DNA from: Heptranchias perlo
Lineage: Eukaryota
Reading direction: 5' to 3'
Length of the DNA stretch: 64,000 nucleotides
NCBI RefSeq assembly: GCF_035084215.1
Contig: NC_090331.1
Location: 72,788,001 to 72,852,000 of the forward strand
In this document: in pieces, positions 12,300 through 64,000 of the stretch
Layout: each line of letters starts with the position of its first letter
Position numbering within the stretch: the stretch's first letter is position 1
The notes under the pieces: model-generated
The model's database searches: none
Told to the model about the DNA's origin: nothing
What the model saw: only the letters and a program-made list of their open reading frames with translations
Program-made: the position numbers and the translations under genes

Positions 12300-13056
12300 A
12301 ATAAGAAGGTCACATATTGCTTGGATAATAAGAGTCTAAATGGAATAGAGGAACAAAGGGATCTCGGGATACAGATACACAAATCACTAAAAGTAGCGCC
12401 GCAGATTAATAAAGGCATAAAAAGGCAAACCAAACACTGGGGTTCATTTCTTGAGGGATAGAATTTAAAAGCAGATAAGTTATGTTAAACTTGTATAGAA
12501 CCTTGGTTGGATCACACTTGGAGTATTGTGCACAGTTCTGGGCTCCATATTATAAAAAGGATAAAGAGGCATCAGAGAGGGCACAAAAAAGATTCACAAG
12601 GATGATACCAGAACTGAGAGGATATCCTTATCAGGAAAGACTGAACAAGTAAAGACAAGAAAGGTTATTTTCTCTAGAAAAGAGAAAGCTGAGGGGTGAC
12701 CTGATAGAGGGTTTAAGATAATGAAGATAATGAAAGGGTTTGATACGGTAATTGTAGAGAAAATGCTTCCACTTGTGGGGGAGTCCAAAACTTAAGATCA
12801 TAAATATAAGATAATCACTAATAAATCCAATAGGGAATTCAGGAGAAATTTCTTTACCGAAAGAGTGGTTAGAATGTGGAATGTGCTACCACAAGGAATA
12901 ATTGAGGTGAATAGCATAGATGCATTTAAAGGGAAGCTAGATGGGGGTAGATGAAGTAGGGAGAGAGGAGGCTCATGTGGAGCATAAACGCCAGCATAAA
13001 CCATTTGGGCCAAATGGCCTGCTTCTGTACTGTAGACTCAAAGTAACTCAATGTAA
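12300..13056 (+). mobile_element. CR1 LINE 3' fragment in gene 2 intron 2
   Basis: Decayed RT C-terminus (HLEYCAQFWAPYYKKD; RRNFFTERVVRMWN) plus tail. Confidence 0.85.
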
Positions 13057-20500: not shown

Positions 20501-21765
20501 CAGATTGACATCTTGCTTTCTGCCTTTTCGGGCTCCAGGAATTTTGGAATGCTTATGTTTATTACTATAACCCTAGGTTACTGACAAAGCAAGATGGTTG
20601 CTGAAAGCATTTTCAAAAAACTACTTTGAGCTATTTCATTGGTACTGTTTCTCTTCCTTGTTTATTGATAGCTGTTTGTTCTTAAGTAGGTTTCCTGTCT
20701 GCGTCTGTTCATTGGTAGCTTTCCTACATGTTCGCCAATATTTCACCCGATCAGCACTAATTGGGGCTCTGTGCACACTGTGGGTAAACGGGCCATAACT
20801 AATTTCCACCCTCATGTGTCCCACAGAAAGACTACACTACATTTTTCTGCTGGGAGATAGAAATACCTCCAGGGTATCTTTTTGTGCATTTTTGGGCAGT
20901 CTTTAAATTTAGGGTCGGAGAACCATTTTCATTAACTCTCCAGCATTTGGTTTGCAACGGCAGATAAACAGAAAGATAGACAGCGGGTTAACAGAAAGAA
21001 CTAAAGAGGGGAAGAAAAGCATAGACAAGGTTACAGGAAGAGGGACACATACTATTTTTTACATTGAACTGTGTCATAGGAGATTATCTTGTAAGCTATT
21101 TAATAAGGGCTCATTTAAAACGTCAGTCCAATATTTTGGGGAAGTTTCCATAAATCCTAGCTAAAGACTTTTTCACTTTAGGACAAAAGCTGGAGCTGGA
21201 ACTTTGCATTCTAAGAAAAAATGTAACTACCTTCCATAGGCAGAAAAACAAATAATCAATTCAAAATGATTCATATGAAAATTTATACTTCAGTATAAGT
21301 ATGTCGTTAATATGATTTTTCTCTGTTGTTAATATGACATTTTTTATCAAGAAGACAGATTAAACCTATAAATTATATTGATAAGAGGACCATATGGCTG
21401 CCTTGTCATTTGACATTCAACTGGGATTTAAATATTTATAAGAAAAATAATGTTTTTTTAGCAAATTGCCGATGCCTGAAAGAACAGTGTCACTGCATTC
21501 TACCAGTTCATGTCAACTAATCTGACCATTATATAAATTGAACAACCTCGGTCAACATTCATTGGCATGTCATTGGTAGGATTTGTATATATGTAAAAGG
21601 TATTCCTTAGGTCAGATCTGTTGAGTAAAATATTGGAGGAGTCCTGTAATACACTTTCTGCTGTATCGTTTACACGAGAATCCAAAAACTAAGTGAAGTA
21701 AGCTGAGGCATGTACTTTATTTTTTAATCATTTCAACAAGGGTATTTGTGTTTTTCAAGAAAAAC

Positions 21766-23009
21766 CTAGAAATCCCTCATTTGCCTGAAAGATCCGATAG
21801 TTGAGCTGTTGCCGCCCAGTCACTGAATCTCCTGTATTCACCGGGACTCATGAAGTACTGCCTTCCCATGTAGTTGGGATGTTCATAGAAGGTCCAGTAA
21901 CCGTCCATCACATTGCAGGAGTGAATGTCACGGTAGCGGAAACGATCGTTGACAGATGGACAGTCATCCATGAATTCCATCATCTGTCCTCCAAAGTCAG
22001 GCCTCTCGTAAATCTTCATTCTGTAGGAACCCCCACTGGTCTGTAATATAAGTAAAATAATATTTATTAACTGTGAATCCAAAGCATAATTTGATAATGT
22101 TTTTAGGAATCCTTTGTTAAATTACATCCTGTAACCCCCTCACAACTAATCCAATGCTTATTTTTCAAGCAATGCCAACTTGTAGATCTGACTTTAAGCT
22201 TTGGGAGTAGAGTTTTATCCTGTGGGTAACTGGAGAGGGATCTAACCCAGCAGGTTTGTGATTTTTTTTTAACTCTATACGATTGTTATAGCAGAGCCAC
22301 TGCCAAGGTTCAAATTTTCACCTTATCTCCACCACTATTGAAGGAGCAATCACCGATGTTCAGTGATGGAGGTTAATCAGCCTAACAGGGCTATTATCCT
22401 ACCATTCTATTTTCCCTTATCTGTGGTGGTGCTATTAACAGCAGAGATAAATAACCCTTTACAATTTATAGTCCAACAATGTTGTGACTGAAGTACCAAT
22501 TTCCAATAAAGTGTGATCTGCCACTGAAGTAACAACCTCGATATCAAAGTTCCTTTTGTTCTAGTTCTTGTTATCCTTTAACTATTCAGTGCCTTACATC
22601 ATTTATTTTACTCACACTTTGATGTTACAGTACAGTACAGAAGTTACAGATTCTAAACTATCTGTTAGACTTTACTTTGGGGGGGGAAAGGTGCCAATAA
22701 TAAAAGTGTCATCTCCTTAAATAAGATAGAACAAGAATAAAATTATTACTTAAAAGAGAGAAGGGTACATTATCCATTGAGAGGCAGTAAATAATATAAA
22801 GCATTATCAGCAAATAATTTGCTGAATTAGCAGCTTGTGTATGGGTATGTGCGACATGACCCGATGCTGTCATTGAATCCCATCCAGCGCTGGTAGTCAG
22901 GATATTCTCCTCTCCTCAGAACATACTGATATCCCATGTAATTGGGTCTCTCATACAGCACCCACCAGTCACTCTCAACACGGATGGAGTTACAGCGGCT
23001 GAAGTAAGA
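21766..23009 (-). pseudogene. Gamma-crystallin pseudogene (gene 3), 5'-truncated; exon 2 remnant 22839-23009, exon 3 21766-22040
   Basis: Exon 3 is 275 nt (1-bp loss near 21815 gives [16 protein letters not shown]); exon 2 donor is ACAAGC; homology stops at 23009. Confidence 0.9.
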
Positions 23010-23097
23010 CGTTCAGTAATTTACCAAATTAATATTTTTTTAATTTTACAAAAATATTATTCACAAAAAGTGCGAAATATAACAGTTAGCCTAACCT

Positions 23098-23847
23098 TGC
23101 CCCATTTTGAGTTCAATTAGGTAGAACAGACTTGCTCTATCAAAACCCCTCATAATTTTGGATACCTTTATTAGGTCTCCCCTTAACCTTCTCTGCTCTA
23201 AGGAGAACAATCCGAGATTCTCCAATTTCTCCATGTAACTGAAGTCCCTCATCCCTGGTATCATCCTGGTAAACCTCCTCAGAACCTTTTCCATGGCCTT
23301 ACATCAAGTTACATCGAAACTACAGCACAGAAGCAGGCCATTCGGCCCATCTGGTCTATGCTGGTGTTTATGCTCCACCCGAGCCCCCTCCCTCCCTACT
23401 TCATCTAACCCTATCAGCATATCCTTCTATTCCCTTCTCCCTCACATGCTTATCTAGCTTCCCCTTAAATGCATCAATGCTATTTGCCTCAACTACTCCT
23501 TGTGGTAGTACGTTCCACATTCTTACCACTCTTTGGGTAAAGAAGTTTCTCCTCAATTCCCTATTGGATTTATCAGCGACTATTTTATATTTATGGCCCC
23601 TAGTTCTGGTCTCCCCCACAAGCGGAAACATTTTCTCTACATCTATCCAATCAAACCCTATCATTATCTTAAAGACCTCTATCGGGTCACCCCTCAGCCT
23701 TCTCTTTTTAAAGAAAGGAGCCCCAGTCTGTTCAGCCTTTCCTGATAAGGATATTCTCTCAGTTCTGGTATCATCCTTATGAATCTTTTTTGCACCCTCT
23801 CCAATGCCTCTATATCCATTCTGTAATATGGCGACCAGATCTGTGCA
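23098..23847 (-). mobile_element. Two adjacent CR1 LINE fragments (~23098-23300 and ~23301-23847)
   Basis: ORFs RRFTRMIPGMRDFSY...LEQRRLRGDLI and TRGHKYKI...RRNFFTQRVVRMWN; tail at ~23300-23400. Confidence 0.87.
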
Positions 23848-23849
23848 AA

Positions 23850-24480
23850 TGATGTGGCCAAGGCATGGTTACATATGGGAAAATTCGCATTGGAAAATGA
23901 GGTAGTCTGGAACCTGGTAAATTCCTGTTGGAACGAGGTGGGTCAGATGCTGCTATTGCTCAGAATTAATATCAGCAGAGTTAATATCAGGCCTTCCACA
24001 GCAGACAAATGTTTTAAAAGAGTTCCATAAAAAACCCTGGGTTGGACACTTGAGGTGCAACAAAAGGGTTAGGAAAAAAAGAAAGAAGTTAAAAGCCCAC
24101 AGCAAAAATTAAAATTGATGTGAGAAAGCAAAAGGATAAGTGTTCTCAGCATTTTCTTCTTCTATTTGAAAAAGAAAAGACTGATGGATTTTGTTTTCAG
24201 TCTCTGAAAGTGGGTGTGAATGTGTGAAAGTTTGCTGCTGGCTACGTGATCTTGAAAGTTAACAGTGATGTTATCAACTGATAACCTGTTTAGCAGAAAC
24301 TGCTGCTGTTTGTTTTCTGTTTTTGGTTTTGAACTGATTTGGAGTAATTGACAGATTGAGAGTTTGATTAGATTATCAAATTATATGACTGGCTTCTGGC
24401 GGTGGCCACTACAGCCAGTTAGCTATTTAAACCATATCGGCTTGAGACCTGGGATTATCACATAAAATGTGGTGCTCCCT
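23850..24480 (+). mobile_element. Possible decayed LTR with a PBS-like motif, upstream of the env-like relic
   Basis: TG at 23850, CA at 24461-24462, then TGGTGCTCC at 24470; no second LTR or TSD found. Confidence 0.25.
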
Positions 24481-24759
24481 GAGTTCATAACCCATTACAG
24501 GGATCAATATTTTTTAAGATGCGTGAAAGTGTGAATATGGTTGTAGAGTATGTTCATTTCAATTTAAGACTGTGCCTCCAAAATATGTGAGATTTAAAGA
24601 AAACTTTTGTGCTTTACATTTGTACAAAACATTGTTTTCTTAATCTTGTCACTGCAAATCATATATTTTTCACTTACTGTATGAGTGAATAAATAATTGT
24701 ATCAGACATTATATCTTATATATTACATCTTGCAGGGATATTACATATTACCACAGTTG

Positions 24760-26319
24760 AACCATAAACCTATTGCTAGCTATTATGTTGGGCTGCGTCT
24801 TACCCTTCAGTGAAGCTGAACACCTTCAGGACAGCTGGGGCTGCGTCCTCATGAGTTATACCACCAATAATACCAAGCCATGGTCAATACAGGATTTTTT
24901 GGCACACGTACCAGCAGGGAAAGACCTTCGATTGACGTGTGCACGTATCAGCAAGGGTTAAGAACCAACTGCTATCAAGAGGCATCGGATGAGTGCGAAC
25001 ATCAGTAAAGACCATGACATTGGGCCTTTTGGCATACCCTATATGGGTGACACTAAGAACACCTTTGCGTTCCCTAATGGGACACGGGCAATGAATAGCT
25101 CCCTCAATTTCCCTCGGGTCTGGAAGCAACATGCTGATTGTTATGGGTGCATACCCAATAGGAGGTCATCCTGGTCCTTCTGCTTTAAAGTAATCAAGAA
25201 TGCGGAGTTGTCAGATGCAACCACCCATTCGGCCTCTACCAGATGCCTGGTTGCAGACAAAGATCCCAGCAATGGTTTATTGGTTTTCAAAACATATCAG
25301 ACCCTATATAACAATATGAGATTTGAAATCTTCCCTGTTCTGTTTAATTTTTCAAAAATTGCTCTGTTACCAAGTTTGTGTAATGAAACTTATGAGAGAT
25401 TCTACTAATAGATGTTATCAGAGAAACTTAGACAGCTTGTGAAGAGAAACTCAGGTTGAGCTAGAGATTCAGTCCCAAGGTATAACCCCATACCGCCCAG
25501 TAGATAGAGAGGAAGACAGAAAGTGGCTGAATGGTTGGGTATAGGGGCAACAGCAGGGACGGCCGCTTGGAACAGGATCGATATAAAGAGCATGTGAGAA
25601 CATGATGAAGCCATGCAAAAGCAATTAAAGGGCATTATGAAAGGGGAGAATAGGGTAGTGACAGGGTCGTTGGATGAACAACAACATGTTTTGGTTCCTT
25701 TGAAGGAGATGTTGACAACTTTTGGCAGACTCAGGAGAAAATTAATAAAGTAAAAAGAGACATAAAGACATTTACGATTCAGATCTCCAAAGGGATTACG
25801 TGCAGCACATTTATGCTGTCTCAGATGGAAAAGGGATTGGAAGATATTGAGAACTAGCGTATCTTCTTCTTTTATAACTGATGAACAGCTAGATAAATGG
25901 ACTGGTGATAATGGAGGAAACCATTATAATATTAAGTGCTGGGATCAGTATACCCAGTGAAACACTCCTGTGAAGACAGAAAAGATGGATAAGTTTTTGC
26001 AGTGACTATTGCCAATCGATGCCTTTCACCCGATCAGAAGCCTTCAGGGGTCTTCAAGGTAGAGTCCATAGGCATCCTCGAAGGTGACATACATAAGGAA
26101 TTGGTTAACCATCCAAAGGTATTGCTAACGGATGGTGAAACCTGGGTAGCACCAGATTTAACTTGCTGTACTGGGATCAAAATCATGTGGATGTGTCGGT
26201 GCGATGTCACCCAGAACAATATCCCGGCTTGTGGTTTCACCCTGGATGAGCACTCCCCTACTTGTACTGTTAGTATTCAAAGCCCCAGGCATTTCCAAGA
26301 GGGTGTCATTCTTGGTTGA
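24760..26319 (+). pseudogene. Decayed env-like class I viral fusion glycoprotein gene (endogenous retroelement relic)
   Basis: ORFs 24773 and 24989 share a frame that continues through stops to SR*RGRQK-VAEWLGIGATAGTAAWNRIDIKSM and a heptad-like segment; after one frameshift near 25735 it continues in the frame of ORF 26002 (PDLTCC...WMC...CG). Confidence 0.65.
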
Positions 26320-26704
26320 CAAAGACATGCTGGGTCATGAAGTCTGCAGCTAGAAAAGGGATGTGATTACTAAGAACAATTGAAATTATTGATCATTGAA
26401 AGACTGCTGAAGCAGTCTAACACCATAGTACTGATATCAGCAGAACATAGCAGACAAATAATATAAAAACAGGGCATGTGGGAGTTTTAGAGCTCTCAGG
26501 ACAGTCGGAGGTCCACAACCCTACGAAAGCCAAGCTTGATCACCCTTGAAGTCAGGGTAAAAACCAGGTTGTACAAATGATTGTTGTTTGATATAACTGT
26601 ATTAGAATATTGTTCTTGGGTCTGTATTAAGCTTGCTGTTAGAAACACAGTCATGTCCGAACCAAGTGGAATATTATTGAAAAGCATTAACAACCCTTGG
26701 TAGC

Positions 26705-28560
26705 AGTAATAATATTTTCCAACGCCCTACTCTCTGATTTCTGTTTTGTAGCCGACTTGCTATCCATTCTGCTACCTGTCCCCTGACTCCTTAGCCATGA
26801 GTCTACTATGCGGTACCTTATCGAAGACCTTTTGAAAATCCAAATATATTACATCTACTGATTACCCTTATCTACTCTTTCTGTTACTTCTACAAAAAAT
26901 TCAATAAGGTTGGTCAAGCTTGACTTTACCTTCTGAAATCCGTGCTGACTATTCTTTATTATAGTTTCATTCTCTAGATGTCTTTCTATTACATCTTTGA
27001 GTAAAGATTCCATTATCTTTCCTACCAGTGATGTTAAGCTAACTGGTCTATAGTTCCCTAGACTTGTCCTACCTCCCTTTTTAAATATAGGAATAATACT
27101 AGCAGTCCGCCAGTCCTCTGGCACTATTCCCTTTTCTATTGAATTTTTATATATATGTAATAGCTCCTCTGCTATCTCTCCCTTAACTTCTTTTAATATT
27201 CACGGCTGCAATCCATCCTGACCAGGGGTCTTATCCTCCCTAAGTTTGATTAGTTTATGAATTATCTCCCCACCTTTCTATCTTAAATGTTTTAATATCT
27301 TTTTTGATCTCTTCTTCTAATGTCCTGCCCACCTTGTTAGTCTCCCTTGTAAATCGGAGGCAAAGTAACTATTCAATATTTCTGCCATTTCGCTGTCATT
27401 ACCTATGAGTTTATCTTGAGCATCCCTTAATGGCCCTATCCCTAGCCTGATTTTTCTTTTGTTATATATGTGTCTGTAGAATACTTTACTATTTCTTTTT
27501 ATATTTCTTGATAATTTAATCTCATGATTCCTCTTTGCTTTCCTAATTGTTTTTTTGACTTCTTTCCTAACCTTTTCGTGTTCTCTTTTGTCATCCTTTC
27601 CTTTATTGTCTAAGTACTTAGAGTATGCCTTTTTCTTTAGTTTCAATTTTACCCTTATCTCTTTATTCATTTATGATGTTTCATTATTAGCTCGTTTGTT
27701 TTTGCTTTTTAGAAGAATATATTTCTCCTGAACTCTATTGATCACCGTTCTAAATATTACACAGTGTTGTTCTATTTCTTAGTCTGTCAAATTTTTTTTC
27801 AGTTTTCCTGCCCTAGTTCCATTCTCATCCCCTCAAAATTAGTTTTTTTACAATCTATTACCTTGGTCTTTGTCTTACTTATGGCTTTCTCAATCATTAT
27901 TTTAAATCTTATTATGTTATAGTCATTATTGCCTAGATGTTCCCCTATGCTTTTCTTATCGGTTCTGGTACATTTCCCATTACTAGATCCAACAGTGATT
28001 CCTCTCTTGTTGGACTTCTCACATACTGGGTAAGAAAGGAGTCATGTACACACTGTAAAAACTCCATTCCCCTTTCCCCTTTCCCTACCTCTTCTTGTCA
28101 GTTTATTTGGGAGCAGTTGAAATCTCCCATGATTATTATTCGATGTTTTTTACTCATTTCATAGATTTGTCTACATATTTCTTCCTCCACTTCCCTTCCA
28201 CTATTAGGTGGTTTGTAGAATATACCTATTAATGTAATCAATCCCTTCTTATCCTTTGTCTCAATCCATATGTTTCTATCTTAATGTTACTTGTGTCCCT
28301 TTTTTCTATTACCATTATGGTGTCTGTAATTAGTATAGCTAACCCACCCCACCACCTCCTCCTTCCCTATCTTTTCTAAATACATTATATCCTGCAATAT
28401 TTAACTGCCAGTCCTGTTCCTTATGCAGCCATGTTTCTGTTATCCCTACCACTTCTAGCTCCTCGCTATGAATTATTGTTTCCAGTACCCCGTTTTGTTT
28501 CGGATGCTGAGCACATTGTTGTATAGGCAATTTAATTTGTTTTTAGTAATTGTTCCTCTC
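26705..28560 (-). mobile_element. CR1 LINE ORF2 fragment (AP endonuclease and RT N-terminus)
   Basis: VVGITETWL...IAGYNVFRKDR; PEDWRTASIIPIFKKG...NYRPVSLTS...SQHGF. Confidence 0.92.
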
Positions 28561-28639
28561 ACTTTGTTTTTAACAGTCATTCTGTACATATGTATAATAA
28601 CTGTATTTGTTCCCTGACCGATTAAAATGGATGACTCAG

Positions 28640-28720
28640 TTAAAGAGCTGACACCAACACAGGCATAATGAGCCAAATGGTCTCCTTCTGGGCATTAATT
28701 TCTATAATTCTAGAATTCTA
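28640..28720 (+). mobile_element. CR1 tail abutting the truncated crystallin exon
   Basis: GAGCCAAATGGTCTCCTTCTG followed by TTCTATAA/TTCTAGAA short tail repeats. Confidence 0.55.
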
Positions 28721-28723
28721 TCA

Positions 28724-28904
28724 CCACAGATGGAGTTGCAGCAGCTAAAGTAAGAGTGCAAGTCAGCCCAGTCAGTTATGAGCCCGTAGTGCTGACCCTG
28801 GAAGTTCCTGTTCTCGTAAAAGATGATCTTAAAACTATGAAATGCATTTGTGTGTTTGGAACGTTTTGCAAATAAAATACCCCACACAAAAATTGCCTTT
28901 CCAT
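28724..28904 (-). pseudogene. Gamma-crystallin 5' relic (gene 3b): exon 1 28897-28904, exon 2 fragment 28724-28827
   Basis: [33 protein letters not shown]; exon 1 is ATGGAAAG|gc (1 nt short); TATA eroded; promoter CTTTGTT at 28985-28991 retained. Confidence 0.85.
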
Positions 28905-30904
28905 TTCTGAGGTCAGCGCCAGAAAAGCAGTGACATGGTTTGGCCCTTTGTAAGGTGGCATGAGGCAGCAAATATGAATAAAACCTTTGTTATTTATTGA
29001 GAGGTCTAATATCAACAAAAGGATTTTGTGATGTGCACGGCATTGTTTGCAAAACATTGCTGTATTATATGGTTACGAATGGTTCATTGTTTCTTTATGT
29101 TCTTTGCTGCACTTTTTGACTAAGACCATACAAAGTAATTTCGTGTGTGTACCTCAACAATCTTGATACATTACTGCACACTGCGTTGGTTAGCTCTGTA
29201 CGGGAAAAACATTTAGAATCAAGCCACTGCCTTGCAGATAAACTATTTGATTTGCTTCTCTGTACTTTTCTCTCCCTTGCTTCCTATTCTCCAAACTGGC
29301 ACTCTCTCCCTCTCTATATGCTCACTGTGTTGCAATAAAAACTTATTACTCATCTCCTATTCTAACTTATTCTTACTCAGTATCTCAAATCTGGAATTTT
29401 TCACCTCCTCAATATACCCCCCCCCCCCCGCCCCCTGAAGAGGTGCTACATAAATGCATGTACTAATAATAATGATTATTTTTGTTAAACTTCCAAATTT
29501 GTAGTTATTTTTGAATCAATTTAAACTACTGACCAATGCGTTTTTGTTGCCTATGCTTCCAATGCCAACTGTTCATAGTCTTGGAAACAATCACAATTCC
29601 AGTGCTATCTATTTATATCATGCTAACCACCTTCACTGTGCCAACTGTGTTTTCCCTGCCAACGACAAAATTTGTGTCAACAGTGTTAAACATAGCTCTC
29701 TTGCTTAAACATGACCTTGTGTTATCTGTGTTTGGCTGAGCCAATTATAGAAATGGTGGCCTCCGATAACTATGCCAATCACACTCCCTAGGCTTGTTGC
29801 ACATTCATTGCCAGACATATCCACTACGCTTTCATCGCCTGGTTATGAATCAAGTCATTGCTGCCAACAGTGATAATCTGCCAACCATGCTCACTATTTA
29901 AAAGATGATTGCTATGCCAATAGCTGCCCTAGAGTCAACTATTTAAAAATGAAAACGTACAAGACCTATAAATTCCTACCAAGCAGATTCTGCTTTCTAT
30001 GCAGTTATTTGTCAAACACACAACCCTTTCTCCGTGTGAAAAGGACAATGACGCGGTCTGCACATAGACTGTTTCACAGCTCTGTCAGAAAGACTTTGTG
30101 AGCAGCTGACAGGATGTGCAATTCAAGTAGAGTTTCATGTGTTAACCTTCTCCTGCAATACAGCACTTCACCTCTGTGCCATGTTGCCTCCACAGCCTGA
30201 GAGCTGGTGGCTCCACATTTGTCAACACATACAGAGGGTTGGGTAATTGTATTGAAATGTTTGGCAGTTGTGGAACTTTGATTCAAACCTGTCTAGTTGG
30301 GTACTAAGTAATTCTTCTTGCTTGAGCTACCAGATAAGCTGCTTAATGTTAGTTATAATTAATGTGGCCTGTGTGTCTCCCACTTTCCCTTTTCCTCCTC
30401 ATGACTACCAGTTAAACATAAATATCCAACTTCCAGTCAGTCACACTAGTTCATCTACTTAGGAACCGAAAACCTAATCAGAGTTCACAGGGCATCAGGT
30501 TACTTTCTTACCAAAACATAAATGAACCTTTTGCAATTGTTTTTATTTTAAGTATTTACAACCGCTTATGCAAAAAATGAGGACTGATCTTAGCTGGACC
30601 ATACTGTAGTACCGTCTGATGTGTAATATTATTGGCTTAAGTTGAAAAGGGACCATCTAACGAAAGTCTAGAAATTTTTCATGTGATTTATAGAAAATGA
30701 GACATTATGGGCCAAATGCAATGGAACATTTTCCTGCAGCAAAAATGTAAGGAAAATCCTGCCTTGTCTTCATTATGTTTTAATCCTCTTCATATGTAGG
30801 TTTTACTGCCTATCAGGAAAAAATAATGGCTAAATTGAGGCAAAAAACTGAAATCTCAGTGTAAATTTTTGCTCTAAACCATTAGTGTTTCCATTGCATT
30901 GGAT

Positions 30905-32120: not shown

Positions 32121-35100
32121 CTATAAAATTAACAAAATCATTAAATCGATGTAAAAATGTAATTTAAAATACTAACAGAATGATACGCTTTTATTTGCAA
32201 ATCTGATGAATGTTAAATTCCTTTCCTGGAATGCTTTACAATAAAAATCCACAATCGCATCATAAAATAATGTTATCTCTTGAAAATGCTACAAATATAA
32301 TAATAACAACAACAACCTGCATTTATATAGCGCCTTTAACGTAGTAAAATGTCCTAAGGTGCTTCATAAGAGCAATTTTCAAACAAAATTTGACACCAAG
32401 CCACATAAAGAGATATTAAGACAGGTGATCAAAAGCTTGGTCAAAGAGGTAGGCTTTAAGGACCATCTTAAAGGAAGAGAGAGTGGTAGAGAGGTGCAGA
32501 GCAGTAGGGAGGGAATTCCAGAGCTATGGGGCTAGGCAGCTGAAGGTACGGCTGCCAAGAGGCAAGAATTGGAGGAACACGGAGATCTCGGAGGGTTGTA
32601 GGGCTGGAGGAGGTTTCAGAGATAGGGAGGGGTGAGGCCCTGGAGGGATTTGAAAACAAGGATGAGAATTTTAAAATTGAGGCATTCCCGTACCGGGAGC
32701 CAATGTCGGTCAGCGAGCACAGGGGTGATGCGTGAACAGGACTTGGTGCGAGTTAGGATACGGGCAGCAGAGTTTTGGGTGAGCTCAAGTTTATGGAGGG
32801 TGGAAGATGGGAGGCCGGCCAGGAGAGCATTGGAATATAATAAACAGATAAAATCCATGGTATACAGAAGTTCTGGAAATGGAATTTTCCTGTATTTATT
32901 AATATGCTCTTTTGTTCTATTTAGATGTAATTCTATATAGTTCCACTTCTTTCTAACAAAACAAAATATGTGACAATCTCTCACTGAAATCTATTTTGAT
33001 TACATATCTATTTTAGTTATAGAGAATATATGCAGTAGTTGATCTGAAGTCTGAATAGTTCTGTAAGTCATGTTATAAATTCTTTACTGCATCCCAAGAA
33101 TGCTCTGGGAATCTAAGCTATTTCTGATTTGCTTCTGTTTCAAATATCCCAACCATCGTCAGCTGCTTCATCAATGACCTTCCCTCCATCATAAGATCAG
33201 AAATGGGGATGTTCGCTGATGATTGCACAGTGTTCAGTTCCATTCACAATCCCTCAGATAATGAAGCAGTCCGTGCCCACATGCAGCAAGACCTGGGCAA
33301 CATCCAGGATTGGGCTCATAAGTGGCAAGTAACATTCGCACCAGACAAGTGCCAGGCAATGACCATCTCCAACAAGAGAGAGTCTAACCACCTCCCCTTG
33401 ACATTCAACGGCATTACCATCGCCGAATCCCTCACCATCAACATCCTGCGGGTCACCATTGACCAGAAACTTAACTGGACCAGCCACATAAATGCTGTGA
33501 CTACAAGAGCAGGTCAGAAGCTGGGTACTCTGCAGCAAGTGTCTCACCTCCTGTCTCCCCAAAGCCTTTCCACCATCTGCAAGGCACAGTCAGGAGTGTG
33601 ATGGAATACTCTCCATTTGCCTGGATGAGTGCAGCTCCAACAACACTCAAGAAGCTCGACACAATCCAGGATAAAGCAGCCCGCTTGATTGGCACCCCAT
33701 CCACCACCCTAAACATTCACTCCCTTCACCATCGGCGCACCGTAGCTGCAGTGTGTACCATCCACAGGATGCACTGCAGCAACTCGCCAAGGCTTCTTCG
33801 ACAGCACCTCCCAAACCCACGACCTCTACCACCTAGAAGGACAAGGGCAGCAGGCACATGGGAACAACGCCATCTGCATGTTCCCCTCCAAGTCACACAC
33901 CATCTCGACTTGGAAATATATCGCCATTCCTTCATCGTCGCTGGGTCAAAATCCTAGAACTCCCTTCCTAACAGCACTGTGGGAGAACCTTCACCACATG
34001 GACTGCAGCGGTTCAAGAAGGCGGCTCACCACCACCTTCTCAAGGGCAATTAAGGATGGGCAATAAATGCTGGCCTTGCCAGCGACGCCCACATCCCATG
34101 AACGAATAAAAAAAGTAGAGACGGATAAGAAAGCACAACTAGTCAGTGATTTACTTTTACCTCTCTGTATATACTATTGTACTGTAATCGATGATGGGAA
34201 CAGTCCCTTACATAGTACATACAATGACAATCCTGTACAATGTCGATTAGTGTGACATTCTGGGCAGTTTATTCCATATTAATAAGTTCCTATTGGATGC
34301 AATTTTAATTAGATGCTTTTGCTTCAACCCCAACTTTTGTAAATAATTAAATATCACTATCTTACATGCAAAATAATTTATATTTAACATGTAATAAGTA
34401 ACTGCTTATAGTTCTAACTTAATAGCTTGTCTCTTGACTGCACAGTATGGTGTGATATCTTTCCAGTTTGTTCTTATTAATTAGATATTGTATATTCAAC
34501 TCCATATATGTCCAGATAGAATTAACAATAATCACAATGAAAAGGCAGTATTGTTTGCAGAAAATAGGGAAATGGTCACAAGAAGTTGAAACTTACATAT
34601 GGGTAGGTGCGACATGACCTGATGCTGTCATTGAATCCCATCCAGCGCTGGTAGTCAGGATATTCTCCCCTGCTCAGAACATACTGATATCCCATGTAAT
34701 TGGGTTTCTCATACACCACCCAGCAGTCACTCTCAACACGGATGGAGTTACAGCGGCTGAAGTAAGAGTGCAGGTCAGCACAGTCAGTACTGCACTCGTA
34801 GTGCCGACCCTGGAAGTTCCTGTCCTCGTAAAAGATGATCTATAGTGTCACAGAAGAAAGAAAAAAGGTTGAATTTGTTTTTCTACCAAATAGCGCAGAT
34901 GCTTAAGCAACGGAATTCTTTCTTCCCAACAAAGATGCATGTTTGAGTCACAAGGCTGTCTAATAGTTGCCATGATGTGGAGATGCCGGTGATGGACTGG
35001 GGTGGATAAATGTACAGAGTCGTACAACACCAGGTTATAGTCCAACAGCATTATTTGAAATCACAAGCTTTCAAATAAAGCTGTTTGACTCACCCGACGA

Positions 35101-36420: not shown

Positions 36421-39400
36421 TTTTTTTTATTCGTTCATGGGATGTGGGCGTCGCTGGCAAGGCCAGCATTTATTGCCCATCCCTAATTGCCCTTGAGAAG
36501 GTGGCGGTGAGCCGCCTTCTTGAACTGCTGCAGTCCGTGTGGTGAAGGTTCTCCCACAGTGCTGTTAAGTAGGGAGTTCCAGGATTTTGACCCAGTGACG
36601 ATGAAGAAACGGCAATATATTTCCAAGTCAGGATGGTGCATGACTTGGAGGGGAACGTGCAGGTGGTGTTGTTCCCATGTGCCTGCTGCCCTTGTCCTTC
36701 TAGGTGGTAGAGGTCGTGGGTTTGGGAGGTGCTGTCGAAGAAGCCTTGGCGAGTTGCTGCAGTGCATCCTGTGGATGGTACACACTGCAGCCACGGTGCG
36801 CCAGTGGTGAAGGGAGTGAATGTTTAGGGTGGTGGATGGGGTGCCAATCAAGCGGGCTGTTTTGTCCTGGATTGTGTCGAGCTTCTTGAGTGTTGTTGGA
36901 GCTGCACTCATCCAGGCAAATGGAGAGTATTCCATCACACTCCTGACTGTGCCTTGCAGATGGTGGAAAGGCTTTGGGGAGTCAGGAGGTGAGTCACTCA
37001 CCGCAGAATACCCAGCCTCTGACCTGCTCTTGTAGCCACAGTATTTATGTGGCTGGTCCAGTTAAGTTTCTGGTCAATGGTGACCCTCAGGATGTTGATG
37101 GTGGGGGATTCGGTGATGGTAATGCCGTTGAATGTCAAGGGGAGGTGGTTAGACTCTCTCTTGTTGGAGATGGTCATTGCCTGGCACTTGCCTGGTGCAA
37201 ATGTTACTTGCCACTTATCAGCCCAATCCTGGATGTTGTCCAGGTCTTGCTGCATGCGGGCATGGAATGCATCATTATCTGAGGGGTTGTGAATGGAACT
37301 GAACACTGTGCAATCATCAGCGAACATCCCCATTTCTGACCTTATGATGGAGGGAAGGTCATTGATGAAGCAGCTGAAGATGGTTGGGCCTAGGACACTG
37401 CCCTGAGGAACTCCTGCAGCAATGTCCTGGGGCTGAGATGATTGGCCTCCAACAACCACTACCATCTTCCTTTGTGCTAGGTATGACTCCAGCCACTGGA
37501 GAGTTTTCCCCCTGATTCCCATTGACTTCAATTTTACTAGGGCTCCTTGGTGCCACACTCAGTCAAATGCTGCCTTAATGTTAAGGGTCGTCACTCTTAC
37601 CTCACCTCTGGAATTCAGCTCTTTTGTCCATGGTCGGACCAAGGCTGTAATGAGGTCTGGAGCCGAGTGGTCCTGGCGGAACCCAAGCTGAGCATCGGTG
37701 AGCAGGTTATTGGTGAGTAAGTGCCACTTGATAGCACTGTCGATAACACCTTCCATCACTTTGCTGATGATTGAGAGTAGACTGATGGGGCGATAATTGG
37801 CCGGATTGGATTTGTCCTGCTTTTTGTGGACAGGACATACCTGGGCAATTTTCCACATTGTCGGGTGGATGCCAGTGTTGTAGCTGTACTGGAACAGCTT
37901 GGCTAGAGGCGCAGCTAGTTCTGGCGCACAAGACTTCAGCACTACAGCCAGGATGTTGTCAGGGCCCAAAGCCTTTGCTGTATCCAGTGCACTCAGCCGT
38001 TTCTTGATATCACGTGGAGTGAATCAAATTGGCTGGAGACTGGCTTCTGTGATGGTGGGGATATTGGGAGGAGGCCGAGATGGATCATCCACTCGGCACT
38101 TGTGGCTGAAGATGGTTGCAAATGCTTCAGACTTGTCTTTTGGACTCACGTGCTGGACTCCGCCATCAATGAGGATGGGGATGTTTGCAGAGCCTCCTCC
38201 TCCCGTTAGTTGTTTAATTGTCCACCACCATTCACGACTGGCTGTGGCAGGACTGCAGAGCTTTGATCTGATCCGTTGGTTGTGGAATCGCTTCGCTCTG
38301 TCTATAGCATTTTGCTTCCGTTGTTTAGCATGCATGTAGTCCTGAGTTGTAGCTTCACCAGGTTGGCACCTCATTTTTAGGTACGCCTGGTGCTGTTCCT
38401 GGCATGCTCTTCTACACTCCTCATTGAACCAGGGTTGATCCCCTGGCTTGTTGGTAATGGTAGAGTGAGGAATATGCCAGGCCATGAGGTTACAGATTGT
38501 GCTGGAATACAATTCTGCTGCTGCTGATGGCCCACAGTGCCTCATGGATGCCCAGTTTTGAGCTGCTAGATCTGTTCTGAATCTATTCCATTTAGCACGG
38601 TGGTAGTGCCACACAACACGTTGGATGGTGTCCTCAGTGCGAAGACGGAACTTCGTCTCCACAAGGATTGTGCGGTGGTCACTCCTACCAATACTGTCAT
38701 AGACAGATGCATTTGCGACAGGTAGATTGGTGAGGACAATGTCAAGTAAGTTTTTCCCTCGTGTTGGTTCGCTCACTACCTGCCGCAGGCCCAGTCTGGC
38801 AGCTATGTCCTTCAGGACTCGACCAACTCGGTCAGTAGTGGTGCTACCGAGCCACTCTTGGTGATGGACATTGAAGTCCCCCACCCAGAGTACATTTTGT
38901 GCCCTTGCTACCCTCAGTGCTTCCTCCAAGTGGTGTTCAACATGGAGGAGGACTGATTCATCAGCTGAGGGAGAACGGTAGGTGGTAATCAGCAGGAGGT
39001 TTCTTTGCCCATGTTTGACCTGATGCCATGAGATTTCATGGGGTCCAGAGTCAATGTTGAGAACTCCCAGGGCCACTCCCTCCTGACTGTATATCACTGT
39101 ACCGCCACCTCTGGTGGGTCTGCCCTGCCGGTGGGACAGGACATACCCAGGGATGGTGATGGAGGAGTCTGGGATGTTGGCTGAAAGGTATGATTCTGTG
39201 AGTATGGCTATGTCAGGCTTTTGCTTGACTAGTCTGTTGGACAGCTCTCTCAATTTGCACAAGTCCCCAGATGTTAGTGAGGAGGACTTTGCAGGGCTTG
39301 GTTTGCCGTTGTCGTGTCCGGTGCCTAGTGGTCCGATGCTGGGTGGTCCGTCCGGTTTTATTCTTATTATGACTTTTCGTAGCGAGATTTTACAACTGAG

Positions 39401-39530
39401 TGGCTTGCTAGGCCATTTCAGAGGGCAATTAAGAATCAACCACATTGCTGTGGGTCTGGAGTCACATATAGGCCAGACCGGGTAAGGATGGCAGGTTTCT
39501 TTCCCTAAAGGACGTTAGTGAACCAGATGT
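36421..39530 (-). mobile_element. Near-complete ORF2 of a Jockey-group (CR1/L2-related) LINE, with stops and frameshifts
   Basis: AP endonuclease (PDIAILTESYL, VGDFNVHH, LLDIVLTN, GRSDH) and RT (GVPQGSVLGP, MFADD) across ORFs 38024-39445, 37559-37969, 36998-37558, 36483-37001; poly(A) at 36421. Confidence 0.95.
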
Positions 39531-62295: not shown

Positions 62296-62973
62296 CCCCA
62301 TCTTACATATCATCACTACACATCTTCCCATCTTAAAAATCCATTACTACACATCTTCCCATCTTAAAAACCCATCACTACACATCTCCCCATCTTACAT
62401 ATCACGACACACCTCCCCATCTTACATACACAAGACTACACACCTCCCCATCTTACACACCCATTACGACACACCTCCCCATCTTACACACCTCCCCATC
62501 TTACACACCCATTACTACACACCTCCCCATCTTACACACCTCCCCATCTTACACACCCATTACTACACATCTCCCCATCTTACATATCACTACACACCTC
62601 CCCATCTTACACACCCATTACTACACATCTCCCCATCTTACATATCATCTCCACATCATACATATCACTACACACCTCCCCATCTTACACACCCATTACT
62701 ACACACCTCCCTATCTTACATACCATTACTACACACCTCCCCATCTTACATACCATAACTACACACCTCCCCATCTTACATACCATAACTACACACCTCC
62801 CCATCTTACATACCATTACCACATATCTCCCCATCTTACATACCCAGTACTACACACCCATTACCACACACCTTCCTATCCTACATACCCATTACTACAC
62901 ATCTCCTCATCTTACATACCCATTATTACACACCTCCCCATCTTACACACCCATGACCACACACCTCCCCATC
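62296..62973. repeat. Minisatellite, ~31-bp unit CACACCTCCCCATCTTACATACCCATTACTA with 18-30-bp variants
   Basis: More than 20 copies of the CCCCATCTTACA core are visible. Confidence 0.95.
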
Positions 62974-64000
62974 AATCCCAGTTTGTAATTTAACAAAGGA
63001 AATTGAAATTACAAATGTTCTGATTTCCATAATATTTAAAATATTTGGAATTCAATCAAATATTTTTAGAAGCAAATTGTATTTTCAATAAATAAGTGAA
63101 AGGAAAAGAACATTTGCTTTTAACTAAAATTTTTCTTATTGAAATTTAAATTGCTTTTAATTGCAAAAAAATTACACAATGATAAATTTTTGAGCCCAGT
63201 GACTTTCTTTCTTCCTTTGTTGGACATGAGCCTGTTTTCATTAGTGATAGCAAACTGATCATTTATACTTCTAACTCTAGTTAAATGCCAGTTTCTTCCT
63301 CTGCCTTCTCTTCTCCAGGATGGCTACTCGTGTCCTGTTGGGAGAATACAGGATCCCACAATCATTGTTATTACAATACTTTAATAACATTTCATTCACA
63401 TACACAACACCGCTATCTTTTAACTGAGCATTATAAAATGAAGACACAGCAGGATTCCAGTGGAAATATTTTTTACACAAATGGCTGTCAGTGCCATGGT
63501 ATTTGGTCAGAGTTCATTTGTACATACACTTGTGTCCAGTGGGAACTTGCCATGTATTCTCTGTTCGTACCCATGCTTCATTTTCTTTTCCAATATACAA
63601 ATATCAATGATCAAGAAAACTCAGTCAGTATTGCCCTAACATCTGCATCACTCAGTCATCAGTCAAAGTATAACAATCTTCCCCTTCAGGTTTGTGAGCC
63701 AATCTGTCTAATTGAGCTCATTCCTATTAATAAAGCAAAACAGGCCGATTCCCATAATGATCTGAGCACGATAACCTATATGGATAGAATGATTCACCCA
63801 AGCATACATTATCGTGGGAACGGTAGTCTGCAGCAAAGGGAAAGTTTTGAATGACAAGCACTAGTACAACTCAAATTTTTCATGATCCAAATTGCAGATA
63901 TTAAATAGCCTGCAAGCCATTAGTAAGGTCTCCACATTAATAATGAAATGCACAAGTCCATTCAGCTCCTCAAAGATGTGAGAGACTTCGGGTCTATCAA

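Follow-up and report, generated by a model that had tools for sequence, protein, structure and literature searches.

A decayed env gene of predicted F-type fold in Heptranchias perlo and its intact relatives in three orders of sharks

We found that a 64,000-nucleotide stretch of the Heptranchias perlo genome (contig NC_090331.1, positions 72,788,001 to 72,852,000; hereafter the window) carries the remains of an env gene at 24761-26280 on the plus strand, with eight stop codons, one to three frameshifts and the last ~200 codons missing, and that intact relatives of this gene occur in three orders of sharks. The relic is likely the 3′ end of an old, 5′-truncated shark endogenous retrovirus (ERV), in which env is followed by a run of purines and then an LTR-like block, and lies inside a LINE in a split crystallin exon. 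The intact shark proteins are likely to represent a retroviral env that was captured by the host.

The 5′ part of the relic (24761-25744, plus strand) contains six stops and is 34% identical over 244 amino acids to XP_067889054.1 of Heterodontus. It encodes a signal peptide, LLAIMLGCVLPFSEA (24773-24817), an Ig-like arm (~24900-25240) followed by an F2-like core, a basic cleavage site that is broken in the relic (SR*RGRQK, 25499-25522) and a fusion peptide, VAEWLGIGATAGTAAWN (25523-25573), which leads into the start of heptad repeat 1. Beyond a clear frameshift near 25735-25744, the 3′ part (25735-26280, plus strand) encodes the end of heptad repeat 1 and a Cys-rich F1 core, with 38% identity over 201 amino acids to the Heterodontus relative. 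Stops fall at 24959, 25406, 25409, 25457, 25505, 25595, 25855 and 25958. The main env frame is more open than chance, with 6 stops in 327 codons compared with 9-27 in the other five frames. The signal peptide, basic cleavage site, fusion peptide, heptad repeat and Cys-rich core are the motifs expected of an F-type class I fusogen. A preliminary description of this DNA had proposed a fossil env-like gene, which the open frame and the match to an intact protein (E = 3e-57) both bear out; all of the peptide motifs that it listed are in the sequence, including six sequons, CSTF...RI and a Cys-rich block reaching to ~26280. It had also counted a single frameshift. The one near 25735-25744 stands, but 25868-25912 matches best in another frame, with a score reached by 6 of 300 shuffles, so that env probably has a further pair of frameshifts around 25860-25990 that compensate for each other.

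Homology to env ends at ~26280. Residues 555-754 of the Heterodontus protein have no match in the window, and a search for env C-terminal homology in 26270-26730 gave nothing above shuffles, indicating that the second Cys cluster, the stalk and the membrane anchor have been lost from the relic. Consistent with the earlier report of a missing transmembrane anchor, no C-terminal anchor was found in the relic, which lacks the 3′ ~200 codons of the gene; all five relatives scanned have one. Eleven of the 12 cysteines that align with those of an intact relative are kept, and both cysteines of the Ig-like arm are retained. CX6CC, the motif of gamma-type Envs and syncytins, is absent from all seven sequences scanned. 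The splice-acceptor-like motif noted ahead of env is present (24728-24736, plus strand) and is the sole YYYYNYAGG in 23847-24790, yet there are 36 on the plus strand of the window. No in-frame Met precedes the hydrophobic leader, which is consistent with a spliced message, though the acceptor motif is common; the motif at 24728 may therefore be taken as modest evidence for a spliced env mRNA. This copy of env is inert at present.

A phmmer search of 1.84 billion proteins with the env 3′ piece returned seven matches. The best was a 739-amino-acid protein of Chiloscyllium punctatum (GCC29952.1, E = 1.6e-27), which the 5′ piece also matched (E = 2e-35); the rest came from Pelodytes and Xenopus or, in four cases, were unnamed. 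Scyliorhinus torazame XP_072333160.1 was recovered in addition by a profile search, and its cluster contains Heterodontus francisci XP_067889054.1. By tblastn, the Heterodontus protein matched the window over residues 123-554, with 34% identity for residues 123-365 and 38% for residues 363-554. The intact shark members of the family are uncharacterised proteins of 739-754 amino acids with a signal peptide, an Ig-like arm, a furin site (intact in all three), a fusion peptide, a Cys core and an anchor, and without CX6CC. They belong to the same family as the relic, with 34-38% identity over residues 123-554 and a near-identical fusion peptide, but they are unbroken and keep the furin site, stalk and anchor, whereas the relic is defunct and present in many copies. 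It clustered with these three proteins in both of two separate trees, with support of 100/99 and 100/100, and its branch was more than ten times longer than theirs; its placement was flagged as unsure in the second tree. The frog members (Pelodytes and Xenopus tropicalis) are unannotated and share 53% identity with each other. The relic pieces had no match in Pfam or among PDB sequences, and none of 2,769 candidates in a word-index search of longer proteins matched them. The family profile found nothing credible among PDB sequences and gave 61 pattern matches on viral contigs, of which none was confirmed. The two word-index protein searches (2 proteins each of ~8,000 scored) under-sample the range of the family. 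An Atlas feature search with the whole Chiloscyllium protein scored 0.82 to an unnamed chordate cluster, which was uninformative.

We modelled the fold on the Chiloscyllium relative, using AlphaFold2 and a 9-row alignment. Confidence in the model is low, with a mean pLDDT of 44 (mostly 50-80 in the core) and a pTM of 0.33. Foldseek nevertheless returned 265 PDB matches at E ≤ 0.001, the best at 1.9e-10, and all of the best 38 of the 265 were paramyxo- or pneumovirus F proteins. The matches listed from BFVD, in which the top match is unnamed, include mononegaviral and baculoviral F, mononegaviral glycoproteins and the Envs of WEHV1 (E = 3.4e-6), WDSV (4.3e-5) and feline foamy virus (6.8e-5). 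VIA aligned the model with Nipah F (Z 8.3, rmsd 8.0, 295 residues aligned) and with foamy Env 8rm0 (Z 8.0, rmsd 7.1, 273 aligned); its alignments span residues ~190-600 with an rmsd of 7-9, and a Z near 8 is borderline. Structural TM-scores for the F-core matches were 0.2-0.4, with high rmsd. An F core is thus recognized in this low-confidence model of an intact relative by both Foldseek and VIA. For the N-terminal arm, all ten structure rows were Ig-family (TM 0.49-0.56), the best feature score of 0.84, being below 0.9, is a lead only, and one unnamed relative had a weak V-set match in Pfam (E = 0.045). No Pfam fusogen family, including PF00523, matched the two relic pieces or seven relatives, the family being too distant for the profile.

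These data suggest a family with a predicted paramyxovirus-F-type class I fold and an extra N-terminal Ig-like arm, in which the arm is probably receptor-binding and the protein would act as an F-type class I fusogen. The preliminary description had preferred an F-type to a gamma-type layout and had pointed to a comparison of structures; the comparison made with the Chiloscyllium model, with paramyxo- and pneumovirus F as its best matches, and the absence of CX6CC both agree with that preference. By analogy with class I fusion biology, the ancestral env would have been expressed from a spliced mRNA, and its product would have entered the secretory pathway, formed a trimer and undergone cleavage at its basic site; the Ig-like arm would have engaged a receptor, and insertion of the Gly/Ala-rich peptide would have brought about membrane fusion.

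Copies of the relic family were gauged from contigs matching at 80% or more in four runs of one sample, a measure in which depth does not equal copy number. Summed contig depth was 239-653 over env compared with 15-20 on the unique flanks (run X1), up to 28 contigs matched at one env site, and long pieces were 82-86% alike. The env relic family is multi-copy and old, and the multi-copy homologues anticipated in the preliminary description do exist. The block upstream of env is likewise multi-copy in contigs. Two runs from the same sample contain contigs of related copies over env and are guessed to be RNA. In runs X1, X4 and X5, a contig over 24756-25153 recurs with 71 differences from the relic (82% identity), at single-copy depth in the DNA runs and at a depth of 115 in a presumed RNA run. 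If the matching difference counts denote the same contig and that run is indeed RNA, a locus of the env family may be transcribed.

A gap of ~80 nt separates the end of env homology from a polypurine-tract-like run of ten purines directly before a TG (26352-26361, plus strand), which lies at the same position in a second copy; runs of ten purines occur at 0.29 per kb per strand and are weak evidence alone. The TG begins a 3′ LTR-like block (26362-26722, plus strand) with a TATA-like sequence at 26462. Its identity to a second LTR-like block, at 55602-56002 on the minus strand (aligned part 55602-55990), is 77% (231 of 300 aligned nt); this second block has a purine run, a TATA-like sequence and AATAAA. 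From their motifs and from the existence of the second copy, we infer that 26362-26722 and 55602-55990 are 3′ LTRs. A purine tract and a 3′ LTR following env are what an ERV would have, and this order supports the LTR-element origin first proposed for the gene; a clean terminal CA is missing from the 3′ end of both LTR-like copies. The ~550 nt before the second block (55960-56560, minus strand) look by eye like an env C terminus. We leave this stretch unassigned, since only 1 of 15 comparisons with the relic family beat shuffles (1/200) and the family profile had no hit. An isolated, inverted crystallin exon fragment (56555-56659, plus strand) abuts the second element.

The LTR/PBS-like block had originally been placed upstream of env. 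We found the LTR-like block downstream, and the multi-copy block that does lie upstream (23847-24727, ~880 nt; no Pfam match in any of six frames) is not its partner. The global alignment score between the two blocks was 71-89 against null means of 74-94, a level reached by 124 of 200 nulls, whereas the second LTR copy scored 246, a level reached by none of 200. A 52-nt local match between the upstream block and the 3′ LTR is borderline (2-3 of 200 nulls), and the second LTR copy had no match to the upstream block. A paired 5′ LTR with a target-site duplication, as expected of an ERV, was not found, there being no partner upstream; the deletion described below would account for its absence. 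Linked gag or pol was seen in none of the six upstream frames, and 5 of the 21 open reading frames scanned (of 70 listed) hit endonuclease or reverse transcriptase (RT), in LINE context. An HHCC-like regular-expression match at 58915 (minus strand) was rejected as a sign of pol because it had no Pfam support. There are no tRNA genes in the window, and Rfam had no match in 22000-30000.

The window lies in a tandem beta/gamma-crystallin cluster on the minus strand that is rich in LINE fragments. The cluster (1900-53600) comprises about six genes 9-12 kb apart, some with frameshifts, and matches Pfam Crystall at E values of 2e-32 and 4e-36. One member, at 21765-28829 (minus strand), is a pseudogene with a frameshifted last exon and another exon split by the LINE and env insert. 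The 3′ piece of the split exon is at 22840-23009 and the 5′ piece at 28718-28829 (both minus strand), and 38 nt are duplicated at its ends (22972-23009 and the piece at 28718-28829, 33/38 identical). Between them lies the host LINE, which we take to be CR1-type from its motifs and which has very high contig depth. Its 3′ part (23010-23846, minus strand) is 85% identical (436/510) to a copy at 12529-13056, and its 5′ part (26723-28717, minus strand) runs from the endonuclease to the first half of RT, the latter identified by Pfam. The env element (23847-26722) sits inside this LINE in antisense orientation. Elsewhere, a different LINE (36483-39514, minus strand) retains long open frames, with endonuclease and RT by Pfam, and has a 95% identical inverted partial copy at 33148-34114 (plus strand), and a minisatellite array with a 30-31-nt unit occupies 62280-62990.

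Homology of the host LINE ends at residue 33 of a 186-amino-acid reference RT stretch and resumes beyond RT; neither a PQG nor a Y/FADD motif occurs in any of the six frames of 23000-28800, to either side of the insert. We estimate that ~0.55 kb of the LINE was lost at the insertion site. Clean integration removes no host sequence; thus, a later deletion is the simplest cause of this loss, and it would account as well for the lack of a 5′ LTR, gag and pol. Decay, the loss of ~200 codons, intact shark homologues, many diverged copies and the loss of LINE sequence are all directly observed, and a history that fits them would be as follows. A LINE would have inserted into the crystallin exon and a provirus would then have integrated into the LINE; one deletion would have taken ~0.55 kb of the LINE together with the 5′ LTR and the gag and pol genes, and a second the env stalk and anchor.

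With no gag or pol in view, the preliminary description had considered an env-only element. Such a non-autonomous LTR element would consist of a 5′ LTR ending in ATCACA at 24462, a primer site, a leader, an acceptor and env, and would be copied by the gag-pol of another element. The upstream block is indeed multi-copy and without a Pfam match in all six frames, its end is the reverse complement of the first six bases of the 3′ LTR (each word occurring once in 23800-26800), and the 52-nt local match to the 3′ LTR is reached by few nulls. However, the two blocks have no global similarity, the second LTR copy is unmatched upstream, and a TGG lies 7 nt away from the putative LTR end. Moreover, the host LINE has lost its RT core at the very site of env, which points to a deletion. 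We therefore regard an env-only element as improbable and a 5′-truncated ERV as the most likely explanation.

It is also conceivable, at a far lower probability, that the relic is the F gene of a negative-strand RNA virus that LINE machinery copied into DNA and that then multiplied as cargo of the LINE. Among the fold matches, F and G proteins of mononegaviruses rank highest, env is located within a LINE, and paramyxovirus-like endogenous viral elements are described from sharks in the part of PMC11089739 considered here. But env is antisense to the LINE, the LINE is disrupted and the two are not transcribed together, and the purine run and LTR-like block directly 3′ of env recur at a second site. 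Identity is 10-14% to viral F compared with 34-38% to env-like proteins from vertebrate genomes, and the same fold is also found in retroviral Envs, according to the sections of PMC11468914 used here. It is equally implausible that the relic arose not as a proviral copy but as a duplicate, since decayed, of the conserved host gene of sharks. The nearest relatives of the relic are host-annotated shark proteins, and it clusters with them, but its identity to them is 34-38% compared with 85-88% among themselves, its branch is more than tenfold longer, and it is many-copy with an LTR-like end. The preliminary description had held that a match to a cellular gene would tell against a viral fusogen; a host-annotated shark gene does match, but that gene is itself an env, so the match leaves the 5′-truncated ERV in place.

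The three intact proteins, one record each, come from Heterodontiformes (XP_067889054.1), Orectolobiformes (GCC29952.1) and Carcharhiniformes (XP_072333160.1), and their pairwise identity is 85-88% (630/739, 627/739 and 662/754). Compared with Heterodontus, Scyliorhinus is 83% identical in the Ig-like arm, 92% in the fusion peptide and heptad region and 98% in the stalk; the corresponding values for Chiloscyllium are 82%, 89% and 96%. An open reading frame that stays intact over long host divergence is what host capture would leave, and such a frame is found in all three orders, whose representatives Heterodontus, Chiloscyllium and Scyliorhinus split in the Jurassic. In one and the same genome, members of the relic family have already diverged by 14-18% at the DNA level, which makes neutral survival of an intact env across three orders unlikely. 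Each shark record was seen on one contig, a mere hint of a single locus. Together, these results make it likely that a galeomorph gene was captured from an F-type, Ig-armed retroviral env before the three lineages split. Its furin site, fusion peptide and anchor are all retained, and its product is a candidate cell-fusion or antiviral receptor-blocking protein of the host. The rival to a captured gene is the recent spread of one virus among the three shark species. If capture is correct, the relic in the window would be a dead viral cousin that reveals the origin of the captured gene, and the gene would be older than percomORF and a non-gamma, paramyxovirus-F-type captured env in a vertebrate. 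If the three genes are orthologous, they would be a very old captured env of a structural class unlike that of syncytins. They would then make it possible to test directly whether an env that is invisible to syncytin-baited screens takes part in cell fusion, placentation or antiviral defence in sharks. The relic, for its part, connects an Ig-armed Env of F type in sharks with an LTR family of many copies.

In a limited literature search, we found no description of the relic env family or of a conserved F-type shark env. The parts of the published shark env screens considered here examined gamma-type proteins only. In the portion used of a recent screen for syncytin-like genes in chondrichthyans (bioRxiv 10.64898/2026.05.06.723177), an immunosuppressive domain and CX6-7C were required, no candidate was reported in placental sharks, and conservation was demonstrated for two Squalus species only; the shark F-type family, which has no CX6CC, would fail that filter. 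The anamniote env survey, in the sections consulted, is limited to gamma-type genes (10.1101/2021.11.23.469661), and the corresponding sections of a paper on teleost env do not mention sharks (PMC12813294). Paramyxovirus-like or filovirus-ectodomain-like elements are the subject of PMC11089739 and PMC11521997, and the relic family is not described in the parts of these papers covered.

F-type Envs are already known in lokiretroviruses and foamy viruses. As far as the text used here goes, lokiretrovirus Env is F-related, with a signal peptide, RXKR, a fusion peptide, a coiled coil and an anchor, the hosts given do not include cartilaginous fish, and none of three Orectolobiformes genomes was positive (PMC7947760). 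By eye, the Loki Env in that portion has its motifs arranged as in the relic family, both where the F core begins and within the Cys region, but lacks the ~170-amino-acid N-terminal arm; three short family motifs are absent from the examined part of the lokiretrovirus supplement (PMC7947760). Foamy Env shares the F core and, according to the sections used, has a module inserted between its subunits (PMC11468914). On this partial reading of the sources, the Envs of epsilonretroviruses (WEHV1 and WDSV) and foamy viruses, like the relic family, combine an F core with an added receptor-binding module, although the foamy module lies between the subunits whereas that of the shark family is Ig-like and N-terminal. 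Epsilonretrovirus and foamy Envs are 980-1320 amino acids long, compared with 739-754 for the shark family. F-type ENV is also known from invertebrate errantiviruses and baculoviruses, in a study that, in the part considered, found no vertebrate homologues and deferred vertebrates (PMC13524379). The predicted core fold is common to the shark family, paramyxo- and pneumovirus F and the F-type ENV of errantiviruses and baculoviruses, although identity to paramyxo- and pneumovirus F is 10-14%, without a PF00523 match. Gamma-type chondrichthyan Envs and percomORF, so far as the sources drawn on describe them, resemble the shark family in being retroviral env genes kept in fish genomes.
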